DNA from: Nitrospinota bacterium | GTDB lineage: Bacteria; UBA8248 | NCBI GenBank assembly: GCA_036231405.1 | Contig: JAZAHK010000005.1 | Location: 1-23,533, forward strand | Reading direction: 5' to 3' | DNA length: 23,533 nt | Shown: positions 592 through 11,041 of the stretch, in pieces | Layout of the letters: each line of letters begins with the position of its first letter | Numbering within the stretch: the first letter of the stretch is position 1 | Notes under the pieces: model-generated | Database searches by the model: none | Told to the model about the DNA's origin: nothing | The model's input: only the letters and a program-made list of their open reading frames with translations | Translations under genes and position numbers: made by a program

Positions 592-1500
592 CTAATTTAT
601 GTAAATTTCTTCCCTAGTAGATGGATCATCATATCTACTTTCTTGAATTGAGAATTTTTGTAAAAGCACTTGATATAAACCCAAACCACCTCTGTAAAAA
701 GCCGTAGAGGAACATGCTAGCCACAGTTTATATATCCTGTAGTTTCTTTCCCCAATAATATCGCGAATTTTTTCTGAATGTTCCTCAAGGTTATCAAACC
801 ATTCTTGGCAAGTTTTTGCGTAGTGAAGACGTAAATTTTCAACATCAAGAATTTCCCATCTTTCTTGCTCCATAACATTCATCATATTTGTAATGTTTTC
901 AAGTTCCCCATTTGGAAAAACATTTTTCTGGAGAAAGTCATTCTGACTTGTCTCAATTCTAAATTTTTGGCAAGTTATTCCGTGATTTAAAAAAAGGCCC
1001 TCATCCTCTAACCGTTCCCTTATTCCCCTAAAAAAAGAAGGATAGTTAGCAATTCCAACATGTTCTATTATCCCAATTGCGGATATCTTAGAAAATTTTT
1101 TTTCTGAAGGAAAATCACGATAATCCAAATGCAAAACTTTACAACGATCAGAAAGTCCTTCTTTTTGGATCCATTCATTTGCCCATTTCGCTTGTTCCTT
1201 AGACAAGGTAACTCCCGTTGCATTAACTCCGTAATGTTTCGAAGCCCAAATAACTAAACTTCCCCAACCGCAACCAATGTCCAAAAATGAATCGTCAGAA
1301 TTAATACGTAATTTCCTACACACCAAATCCATTTTATCTTTTTGAGCAACTGCCAATTTGTTTTGAGGGGACCTATAGTATGCACAGGTATAGAGCATAT
1401 TTTCGCACAAAAGCAATTCATAAAAATCGTTTGAGAGATCGTAGTGAAAAGAAATTGCTTCTGCATCTGCCGATTTTATTCGATTTTTCTTCATACTCAT
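592..1500 (-). CDS. cfa: Cyclopropane-fatty-acyl-phospholipid synthase family SAM methyltransferase, catalytic domain only (~302 aa)
   Basis: HYDLSNDFY, YTCAYY, LDIGCGWG, GVTLS.EQ, DYRD, EHVG, FPNGEL, LHYAKT. Start moved to ATG at 1500 because GGAGG lies just upstream (1504-1508). Confidence 0.9.
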   Translation of the reverse strand: MSMKKNRIKSADAEAISFHYDLSNDFYELLLCENMLYTCAYYRSPQNKLAVAQKDKMDLVCRKLRINSDDSFLDIGCGWGSLVIWASKHYGVNATGVTLSKEQAKWANEWIQKEGLSDRCKVLHLDYRDFPSEKKFSKISAIGIIEHVGIANYPSFFRGIRERLEDEGLFLNHGITCQKFRIETSQNDFLQKNVFPNGELENITNMMNVMEQERWEILDVENLRLHYAKTCQEWFDNLEEHSEKIRDIIGERNYRIYKLWLACSSTAFYRGGLGLYQVLLQKFSIQESRYDDPSTREEIYIN

Positions 1501-1511
1501 TTTCCTCCACA

Positions 1512-2639
1512 TTAACCGATACCGAATGCGCCCTCTAAAACAAAACGCCTTCTAAGCCAAGCATTTTTACACATTAGCTTCGCAATACTCTTGGTAATAT
1601 TAGTCGGTAAAAATTCTATGACTTTACCCCCTAAGCTAACTTCGCCATTTCCATACAATGCACATATTCTATCTTTATAGTTATCCAAATTTTTACCAGA
1701 ATCAAGGAAATCTAAAATATTGGCACTTGCGATAATTGAACTCTTAATGGCAGGCCCGATACCCTCACCACTAAAATCTTGAGCAAGTCCAGCTGCATCA
1801 CCAACCAACAAAAATCTATCTCCTGCAATATTTCTTGAAAATGTTCTATATATGGAGTAAGCATGCCCTTTAAATTTATTAAGAACAGCGTCAGCACTCA
1901 ATCTTCCAGTATTGTGAAGTGTTTTTAAAAACCGATGTAACCTTTCATGAACACTAGGTTCTTTCCCTACACAACCAACTCCAATATTGAGATAATCCCC
2001 TTTCGTGAAATACCACGCATATCCATTAAAATCAGCCTCGGGAAACAGTTCAGGCAGTCCATAGTTAGGAGCAATAGATTGTAAAACATCTGAACCTATT
2101 TTAGTTTCACTTTCTTGCGTTAAAACAACAGATTCTTCAGAAGAAATAGAACCACAACTTCGTGCGACCGGACAGGTATGCCCCCCTGCTCCAACCACAA
2201 TTGAAGACTTAAAAGACTCTTTATCAGAGTAAACTGTCACACTATTTTCATGAAATTTTACTTCCCGCACACGAATCCCACAACGAACATCCACCCCAGT
2301 TTTTTCTGCACGTTTCAACAAAAAATGGTCAAATTCATAACGAATGATTCCATAACTTGCAGGCTCATCCCAACTTGTTTCGTAAGATTTGCCATCACAG
2401 TCAATAAAAATCGAAGAGAAAGGTTGAATTGTCAAAGGATAGTCACTTGGACTCAGTTCTAGATCAGACAGAGCCTGTTTTGTAATCCATCCAGCACATA
2501 ATTTAACACGAGGAAAAATTGATGCGTCTAGAAGTAATACTTTTTTTTCTGCTAAAGCAAGTTTCCTGGCAACCGTACTCCCTGCGGGACCACCGCCAAT
2601 CACAATCACATCCCACATATCCAAATTCAAATCATCCAT
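1512..2639 (-). CDS. Geranylgeranyl-reductase-family FAD-dependent oxidoreductase
   Basis: GGGPAG FAD fold, FPR.K.CAG, R.EFD..L, GYAWYF.KG, NIGVG, LVGDAAG......GEGI..A. Confidence 0.88.
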   Translation of the reverse strand: MDDLNLDMWDVIVIGGGPAGSTVARKLALAEKKVLLLDASIFPRVKLCAGWITKQALSDLELSPSDYPLTIQPFSSIFIDCDGKSYETSWDEPASYGIIRYEFDHFLLKRAEKTGVDVRCGIRVREVKFHENSVTVYSDKESFKSSIVVGAGGHTCPVARSCGSISSEESVVLTQESETKIGSDVLQSIAPNYGLPELFPEADFNGYAWYFTKGDYLNIGVGCVGKEPSVHERLHRFLKTLHNTGRLSADAVLNKFKGHAYSIYRTFSRNIAGDRFLLVGDAAGLAQDFSGEGIGPAIKSSIIASANILDFLDSGKNLDNYKDRICALYGNGEVSLGGKVIEFLPTNITKSIAKLMCKNAWLRRRFVLEGAFGIG

Positions 2640-2980
2640 ATCTTGATCCCATAGACCACTTTTTTAAAAAACGGTATCTCTAAATAATCAAAACTATCTG
2701 CAGCCGCAATAGACTCGAATAGATCTCCCTCAATGTTTATAAGCTGGTCGCAGTAAGCTTCAGCAAAGTTTCCCGCTGTTGGATTTAACATGATTTTTTT
2801 AAAAATTTTCAAAGAAGTGAAATGAACCTTTATTGGTCGGACATTCTTCCCAACATCAATTTCTGTACCATCCCAGAGAACAAATGTAAGTCCATACTCA
2901 CTCTCAGAAAACAAAGAACTAACAGATTCAGTGATTTTAGAAATTGTTCGACTATCCAAAGATTTCATTTCTGCAGACAT
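2627..2980 (-). CDS. Small protein resembling the N-terminal domain of two-domain Cfa synthases (~117 aa)
   Basis: FVLWDG...NP....FAEAY....INIEGDL pattern recalls the Cfa N-terminal domain (LWDG...LGEAY..G.IDIEGDL). ATG at 2980 follows GGTGG, and the stop overlaps the next gene. Confidence 0.72.
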   Translation of the reverse strand: MSAEMKSLDSRTISKITESVSSLFSESEYGLTFVLWDGTEIDVGKNVRPIKVHFTSLKIFKKIMLNPTAGNFAEAYCDQLINIEGDLFESIAAADSFDYLEIPFFKKVVYGIKIWMI

Positions 2981-3014
2981 ATCAGCCACCAAAATGTTCT
3001 TTAACTAAAAAATT

Positions 3015-3044
3015 ATTTTAAAAAACACACCTATCTAAAGTCAA
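3015..3044 (-). promoter_or_regulatory. Putative sigma70 promoter for the three-gene lipid-modification unit
   Basis: Minus strand TTGACT (3044-3039), 18-bp spacer, TAAAAT (3020-3015), upstream of ATG 2980. The background is AT-rich. Confidence 0.45.
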
Positions 3045-9808: not shown

Positions 9809-11041
9809 TTATAAAGTACATTTCAAAATATGAAGACCGTGATTTTTATCGGTAACGTATATATAGCCTCTTCTATCTACTAGAACATCTTCACTTTGAG
9901 TTACTAACGTTTCAGGAAGCAGTCCTAATCTTTTTGTTGGATCTGAAGGGATATAATAAGCTATCTCTCTTGGAAGATTTGGATCTGAAATATCATAAAT
10001 ACGTAATCCCGCGTTAAAATAAGTAAGATATATCCTGTCCTCTCCTTGCTCCAAACAATCTAGCCCTTGAGCATGATGCTGATTATGCGGACCAAAACGC
10101 CCTCCCCTTTCACAGAAATTTTTATGGGTATATCCTTTAGGAGGTTCAGGAACAGGAAATAAACTCTTCAAACAAGGATTCTTTTCATCACTTATATCTA
10201 TGATAGCCGTGTAGTTAAGAGGCTCATCACATTTCTCTTTTAAGGCCTCACTATTAGCAATGGCAAAACCTTTAGAAAAATAAGGATAAACTGTATGCAC
10301 TGCAATCGCACTTCCAAGAGGGGGATATACATTCAATCTACTTACAAACGTTGGGTTATTAATATCCTCAATATTTACAACAACCATCCCTCCCCTTGCA
10401 TAAGGGAGATATGCTCTCCCATTTTCTGCATGGGCAGGTCCATGCTGAAAAATTCTAAGACCCTCTTGCAGTTCTTTACTCTCTCCTTCTTTCTGTTCTG
10501 GCAAAGAAAATTTCGAGACCTCCTTAGGAGAACGTGGATCACTCACATCAAGAATCCTATAAATCTGACCGTCATAGCCTGAGCAACAAGCGGAAAGATG
10601 AGCGTACTTTCCTCCATTATAGAAATTTCTATGAGTCCCATCCGAACCAGTTTCCCAATGAGAGAGCAGTTTTGGCATGGCAGGATCAGAAGAAACATCC
10701 CATATAAAAACTCCCTCTGCCTCAGGTGGGTCATCAGGTCTAGTACCCCATCCCGGTGGAATTTTTTCAAGTGAAGTTATAAGTAAACCCTCTGCGACTT
10801 GCACTTGCAACGTCCAAGTATTATCTGGTCCTTCTATAAAATTCAAATATTCAGGTCTATCAGGTTCAGTTACATCTAAAATACTCCAACCACTGACCCA
10901 AAAATGAGACAAATACAAATAAAAACGTCCGTCTACTTCTTGCATAGCAATTTTAAAAGCCGGTCTATCTTTTAAATCATGGTAACCAACCAGATTAATA
11001 TTCTCTGATGCAATCGCCGCTGGAGCCTGAGAAACACTCAA
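9809..11041 (-). CDS. LVIVD-repeat beta-propeller protein
   Basis: Repeated (I/V)(L/W/Y)D(V/I)S(D)P..P motifs: ILDVTEP, IWDVSSDP, ILDVSDP, IIDISDE, IYDISDP. No signal peptide. Confidence 0.8.
   Translation of the reverse strand: MSVSQAPAAIASENINLVGYHDLKDRPAFKIAMQEVDGRFYLYLSHFWVSGWSILDVTEPDRPEYLNFIEGPDNTWTLQVQVAEGLLITSLEKIPPGWGTRPDDPPEAEGVFIWDVSSDPAMPKLLSHWETGSDGTHRNFYNGGKYAHLSACCSGYDGQIYRILDVSDPRSPKEVSKFSLPEQKEGESKELQEGLRIFQHGPAHAENGRAYLPYARGGMVVVNIEDINNPTFVSRLNVYPPLGSAIAVHTVYPYFSKGFAIANSEALKEKCDEPLNYTAIIDISDEKNPCLKSLFPVPEPPKGYTHKNFCERGGRFGPHNQHHAQGLDCLEQGEDRIYLTYFNAGLRIYDISDPNLPREIAYYIPSDPTKRLGLLPETLVTQSEDVLVDRRGYIYVTDKNHGLHILKCTL

Follow-up and report, generated by a model that had tools for sequence, protein, structure and literature searches.

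The window, as the whole stretch of 23,533 nucleotides analysed here is termed, contains three tightly packed minus-strand genes in which the two domains of one Cfa methyltransferase are encoded separately, on either side of an intact reductase gene (Table 1). The layout is a real, conserved split of a single Cfa. The small first gene (N) was confirmed, by sequence comparison and a predicted model, as a stand-alone Cfa N-terminal lipid-binding domain with an SCP2-like fold; profile and motif comparisons likewise confirmed that the second belongs to the TmpA group of GGR-family flavoproteins and that the third (C) is an intact Cfa catalytic domain. Judged from its gene content, the operon quite probably directs the synthesis of mid-chain methyl-branched (10-methyl type) membrane fatty acids through methylenation followed by reduction. 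The pairing of a Cfa-like methyltransferase with a TmpA-type reductase is already published (PMC7791843).

The locus and its three products

Table 1. Genes and expression signals of the operon, listed in the direction of transcription.
Feature	Position	Strand	Stop	Assignment or remark
Promoter, sigma70-like TTGACT-18-TAAAAT	3015..3044	-		10/12 consensus match; -35/-10 conserved in genus
RBS-like GGTGG of small gene	2986..2990	-		Conserved in genus
N gene, 117 aa	2627..2980	-	TGA	Stand-alone Cfa N-terminal lipid-binding domain (DUF7884)
Reductase gene, 375 aa	1512..2639	-	TAA	GGR-family FAD reductase, TmpA group
GGAGG, RBS of catalytic gene	1504..1508	-		Sequence motif
Catalytic gene (C), 302 aa	592..1500	-	TAG	Cfa/CMAS catalytic domain

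All three open reading frames of the original prediction were recovered, as were the RBS-like motifs that it had reported for both Cfa parts. The motifs LWDG, FAEAY and INIEGDL lie within the 117-aa protein, and HYDLSNDFY starts at residue 19 of the 302-aa protein. The operon is flanked upstream by an EamA transporter gene and on the other side by a convergent ddl. The small gene and the start of the reductase gene share 13 nt in the window, while most relatives have a 4-nt ATGA/GTGA overlap between these genes; an ATGA, GTGA or TTGA overlap was present in 60/71 N-reductase-C loci (drawn from the best 80 of 534 metagenome matches) and in 17/20 family loci. A start of the catalytic gene at 1500 is favoured over the in-frame ATG at 1512 because a 1-nt insertion occurs at position 1507 in another run. 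The predicted sigma70-like promoter held up in part: sites of the TTGACT-18-TAAAAT type numbered 9 in a scan against 9.2 expected by chance, and so showed no excess, but the -35 and -10 boxes were kept in 4/4 genomes of the genus with a spacer that varies. Both gene junctions were spanned by contigs of other seawater runs, and an assembly artefact is rejected. Elsewhere in the window, an ORF at the contig end (23205-23525) consists of a lysine/glutamate-rich coiled-coil unit repeated twice, and a 410-aa ORF (9809-11041), with a cyclase-like gene and ETF genes as neighbours, presumably resembles an LVIVD-repeat beta-propeller.

The 117-aa protein matched Pfam PF25371 (DUF7884) above the cut-off with an E value of 1.9e-7. 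It aligned to positions 6-79 of 393, the N-terminus, in the NCBIfam CfaB model (NF040703), which scored it at 19 bits (cut-off 650). Its predicted model (pLDDT 78) ends in a basic, moderately amphipathic C-terminal helix, and in Foldseek its best matches were two solved Cfas, 5Z9O and 7QOS, through their N-domains (E about 0.01), followed by SCP2 proteins (E 0.008-0.06 over the set); structural comparison of the model gave a middling VIA Z of 5.3-5.6. The predicted fold resembles the SCP2 and UbiJ-SCP2 carriers. A PDB sequence search with N alone as query yielded at best a match to 5Z9O at only E 1.4, and against the natural fused Cfa P0158 the E value was 1e-14. Both halves are collinear with natural fused Cfas, for example with residues 13-104 (N) and 121-412 (C) of P0158, so that the predicted likeness of the small ORF to Cfa N-domains, and of the joined halves to a two-domain Cfa, was borne out by profile, structure and alignment. 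The gene is under purifying selection (dN/dS 0.09-0.30 in 8 pairs), its product measures 105-132 aa in 47/49 cases, the remaining two being cut by contig ends, and it is retained across several phyla. Within the genus it diverges faster than its neighbours, with 69% identity versus 77-84% for the other two genes. A frameshift pseudogene, which had already been thought insufficient to explain the arrangement, is rejected for this conserved split around an intact reductase.

The 302-aa protein is the only Cfa in the genome and matched CMAS (Pfam) at E 1e-85. Residues C39, E146, H173, I175 and Y227 correspond to C139, E239, H266, I268 and Y317 of the E. coli enzyme; C39, E146, H173 and Y227 were invariant in 32/32 sequences and all bicarbonate ligands are intact. 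Thr38 occupies the place of E. coli Ser138, and the E. coli dimer residue E308 is replaced by Leu. The best named NCBIfam match was the cyclopropane synthase CfaB (NF040703) at 310 bits, below the cut-off of 650. In its two domains and its catalytic residues the pair of proteins matches the two-domain Cfas of E. coli (6BQC), L. acidophilus (5Z9O) and A. aeolicus (7QOS), whereas in those enzymes the domains are linked and Ser stands at position 138.

According to the accessible part of PMC11387697, the N-domain of E. coli Cfa holds one acyl chain and a cut between the domains lowers activity; the available text of PMC9851988 records that engineered halves remain associated. Unlike that engineered E. 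coli enzyme, in which association is kept but activity is lost, the split here is natural. Because separated E. coli domains stay associated but lose activity, it is likely, by analogy, that N acts as a separate lipid-presenting subunit of the catalytic protein. The proposal of a stand-alone lipid-presenting subunit accordingly survives for the methyltransferase; its extension to the reductase was not supported, as discussed below.

The reductase exceeded the NCBIfam cut-off only for the broad TIGR02032 subfamily and fell below the equivalog cut-offs for DGGR, ChlP and MenJ. Its nearest solved relative is the archaeal DGGR 3OZ2. Fold and FAD motifs are common to the reductase and the archaeal DGGRs (3OZ2, 3ATQ), but identity is about 18% and the DGGR substrate consists of isoprenoid chains. 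The motif FPRxKxCAGW was found in 49/49 reductases, and published TmpAs carry FPR.K.CAGW, a comparison made by eye and via a fetched look-alike (L218); the reductase is 32% identical to the fetched TmpA look-alike. The DGGR-type motif YxW[YF] was likewise present in 49/49. Identity as a halogenase was rejected, the WxWxI motif occurring in 0/49. In a quick tree the split-locus reductases made up one clade (SH-aLRT 99), whose sister group (93) consists of the reductases located after a fused Cfa in the tmpBA arrangement, the TmpA look-alike among them. Plasmids yielded no match to the reductase at 1e-20. One family reductase (L021, G005:C154) contains a single internal TAG and is otherwise intact, the result of a sequencing error or a recent break. 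Three reductases of the split clade are located apart from N (L126:1799-2582, L145:3074-3595 and L133). All three have a conserved gene upstream, of which the copy from L126 gave no Pfam match, and in L126 and L145 a ferritin-like gene lies convergently downstream, whose DESRHF motif we take to be desaturase-like.

Distribution and history of the split

Among 41 other genomes of the window's family within its phylum, 39 had N, and the reductase and C were each detected in 40. The order N-reductase-C stood on one contig in 37/39 genomes with N and was broken across contigs in 2/39. One genome (G016, 97% complete) was without all three genes, and in another (G021, 67% complete) the contig ends before N. 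Outside the family, 0/9 genomes of the same phylum matched. Related records carry the labels Nitrospinota, Nitrospinaceae or Ca. Tectomicrobia. A first contig scan with a single protein as query gave no match. A metagenome scan with the reductase as sole query produced 534 confirmed matches, and the best 80, a selection that favours close relatives and contains some duplicates, comprised 71 N-reductase-C loci, 4 with the reductase only, and 4 N-reductase and 1 reductase-C loci cut by contig ends. The predicted gene order is conserved well beyond this assembly, both in the family and in these metagenome loci.

Named members of the split clades belong to Methylomirabilota/Rokubacteria, Binatia and 'Deltaproteobacteria'. 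In 201 genomes of another phylum, N was matched in 28; 1 genome had the split, 9 had a fused Cfa followed directly by the reductase (tmpBA order) and 1 further genome had a Desulfobacter-type tmpBA look-alike. The class that holds this split genome was represented by 151 genomes, of which 56 matched. These gave 29 new loci: 21 with N-reductase-C (one with a frameshift in N), 1 with an internal deletion, 1 with N-C without the reductase, 5 fused with no reductase in view and 1 fused with a reductase. At L255:5136-5651 (G307:C97), the reading frame after N links the first 16 residues of the reductase, in frame, to the C-terminal half of C; the join sits at a short shared GC-rich word, indicating a deletion or a misassembly. 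A word-indexed search returned 772 proteins of 57-228 aa that match the N profile. Seven stand-alone N proteins (P0135, P0138, P0145, P0146, P0148, P0151 and P0165) are of a different lysine-rich, low-GC type, one of them labelled Nanoarchaeia archaeon, and possibly represent a separate split.

C is followed, in the majority of family genomes, by a same-strand alpha/beta-hydrolase gene (L023:9811-10800, with equivalents in L020, L022, L027, L031 and L034), and a lipase-like gene frequently lies opposite. Neither gene occurs in the small-genome genus of the window, in which ddl adjoins the operon.

Trees of the catalytic domain (a subset of 40 rows), N (25/64 split N rows left out) and BfaB (38 rows) were built under LG+G4; one quick tree left out P0190 and P0262 as long branches. 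The split catalytic domains formed one clade (100/99) inside a lineage of fused Cfas without a reductase in view. A single clade of split catalytic domains and tmpBA-order Cfas was rejected by the AU test (p 2e-7), also without the E. coli-like member (p 9e-6); these tests used look-alikes in place of the published TmpB proteins, which are themselves of two types. The N domains grouped with the same fused lineage as C (100/99); an origin of N as what is left of an upstream tmpB is rejected, since N falls with the relatives of C itself. Across 37 fused proteins the N and C scores correlated (rho 0.56), kin among them not being independent. Because both halves fall within one and the same Cfa lineage in the trees, and not in the tmpBA-order lineage, a single ancestral fused cfa was probably cut at the linker around a tmpA-like gene. 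Two of three trees made Nonomuraea BfaB the sister of the split clade (86/85 and 91), with alternatives not rejected (AU 0.18 and 0.07), and in a larger tree P0158 took its place. Two fused Cfas, P0177 and P0190, have long N-terminal extensions, the start of the former presumably resembling a heavy-metal-binding domain.

Within the split clade lie two fused proteins, P0250 and L242, and one pair of adjacent genes, L232. In L232 the order is N-ATGA-C with no reductase between, and in the incomplete genomes of L232 and L242 no reductase of the TmpA-like clade was found. From these placements we infer that the halves stayed adjacent or re-fused once the reductase was later lost. That the halves re-join when the reductase goes implies that N is tied to C. 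In the re-fused N-C protein L242 (G283:C34), Gln replaces the bicarbonate-binding His, and this protein may be inactive or altered in function.

Proposed pathway and the residue at position 138

In the proposed pathway, N and the catalytic protein would come together again at the membrane through non-covalent contacts, as a Cfa-type enzyme of two chains in which N would hold or extract the phospholipid. The catalytic domain would use SAM to methylate a cis double bond, and proton loss would then give an exo-methylene branch, as in BfaB and TmpB. The FAD reductase would finally saturate the methylene to a methyl group, as proposed for the putative reductase TmpA; the step is putative in tmpBA as well, TmpA having been inactive in E. 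coli and yeast, as given in the accessible text of PMC7791843. A membrane fatty-acid desaturase encoded in the genome could supply the substrate. The desaturase (G000:C48, L256:1357-2769) is prolonged at its C-terminus by a long helical stretch of about 180 aa.

The closest precedent is tmpBA of Desulfobacter, Desulfobacula, Marinobacter and Thiohalospira, in which, from what PMC7791843 gives in its available portion, TmpB makes 10-methylene acids and TmpA is a GGR-like putative reductase. There too a Cfa-like methyltransferase and a GGR-like flavoprotein of the same group share one operon, with common reductase motifs and Thr in a Y-T-C motif. However, tmpBA has two genes, a full-length tmpB and then tmpA, whereas here there are three, and by the AU rejection the methyltransferase derives from another Cfa lineage and is not a TmpB orthologue. 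The bfaAB (tmsAB) system of actinomycetes resembles the operon in its Thr marker, in a BfaB from the same broad Cfa lineage and in methylenation followed by reduction, which is proposed here from the genes alone. It differs in that BfaB is a single chain rather than two and that BfaA (Nonomuraea) is a PF01565 FAD-binding oxidoreductase, unrelated to the GGR-family reductase of the operon.

As the methyltransferase is not a TmpB orthologue, support independent of the tmpBA pairing was sought. Position 138 was the best-separating column of 302 scanned, and the tree needs 5 changes at it. Thr, located between a conserved Tyr and Cys, was present in 38/38 non-redundant split C proteins (131/131 split loci, duplicates included), in 11/11 tmpBA-order Cfas, in Nonomuraea BfaB and in 6/6 BfaB and 5/5 TmpB published sequences (PMC7791843 set). 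Ser was present in E. coli Cfa, 25/34 unpartnered fused Cfas, 4/4 further controls and all 5 solved relatives, out of 10, that were compared at this position (7QOS, 5Z9O, 1KPI, 1L1E and 2FK7). The 8/34 unpartnered Cfas with Thr all lie inside Thr clades. An independent-pair test gave p 0.25-0.5, being too small to reach significance. The marker was spotted after the fact and is a post-hoc lead, yet it spans three separate characterised lineages, and for this reason methylenation followed by reduction is regarded as quite probable. The likely product, as the marker and gene pairing suggest, is a methyl branch and not a cyclopropane ring.

Alternative readings and significance

The pathway could be as proposed but with the freed N as a shared SCP2-like carrier that collects the methylene intermediate at the methyltransferase and delivers it to the reductase, much as the original prediction had N serving both enzymes. 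The carrier-like fold of N is in keeping with such a role, as are its translational coupling to the reductase and not to C (the 60/71 and 17/20 loci given above) and the near restriction of the split state to loci where the reductase is present, but the intervening gene by itself would account for rare re-fusion. Moreover, N goes with C on loss of the reductase, beside it in L232 and fused to it in L242 and P0250; reductases of the clade occur without adjoining N in L126, L133 and L145 (short contigs); and the sister reductases accompany fused Cfas. These loci argue against service of N to the reductase, and a shared carrier is an improbable refinement of the pathway.

It is unlikely that N and C form an ordinary cyclopropane synthase, with the reductase engaged in an unrelated or later task such as isoprenoid or quinone saturation or ring opening and reduction. 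The intact bicarbonate ligands and the best NCBIfam match to CfaB would fit such an enzyme, as would the lack of a visible redox gene beside the majority of the closest fused relatives and the DGGR/GGR fold of the reductase; but BfaB and TmpB likewise retain the bicarbonate ligands, as the accessible text of PMC7791843 has it, and the Thr marker speaks against this reading, as does the fact that at least three lineages have kept a TmpA-group reductase between the two halves.

Less probable again is a different product: a methyl-branched monoene, a product of methylation with flavin-dependent desaturation or oxidation, or one built on an ether-lipid substrate. Furan fatty acid synthesis proceeds by methylation and then flavin-dependent desaturation or oxidation. 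The hydrolase gene that follows C on the same strand in many family genomes would be in keeping with another product. Cfa-like enzymes yield varied products, and within the part of PMC7791843 that was accessible no TmpA-group enzyme has a demonstrated activity; however, the published tmp carriers are listed there as 10Me16:0 producers, and the motifs match those of reductases (DGGR type). That the small gene is a decaying remnant, with C working alone like the single-domain mycolic-acid methyltransferases, is highly implausible, for although N diverges faster and about 8% of Cfa-family proteins are given as lacking the N-domain (PMC11387697, accessible part), its purifying selection, its length of 105-132 aa in 47/49 cases, its retention across several phyla and re-fusion to C all speak against decay.

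Methylenation followed by reduction remains the preferred reading. A broader version of it, put forward tentatively and regarded as doubtful when all its parts are taken jointly, would have a functional split in which N is the phospholipid shuttle of a three-protein machine found widely among uncultured bacteria of soil, sea and sponges, Thr138 helps to steer the reaction to methylene, and the carriers are unrecognised sources of 10-methyl biomarkers. A literature search, conducted outside subscription journals and patents, found no description of the Thr/Ser contrast, the split layout or DUF7884 as a free subunit.

A natural split kept across several phyla, set against the lowered activity of cut E. 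coli Cfa given in the available text cited above, offers a test bed for the roles of the N-domain and the linker, and the operon provides a second, independent setting in which TmpA-type reductases can be tested. The Thr/Ser marker supplies a one-residue hypothesis for the distinction between methylene- and cyclopropane-forming enzymes and an aid to re-annotating Cfa homologues. According to PMC7840048, high-microbial-abundance sponges are rich in mid-chain methyl fatty acids, whose producers are still debated; carriers of the operon in seawater and soil would widen the range of candidate producers of these acids.
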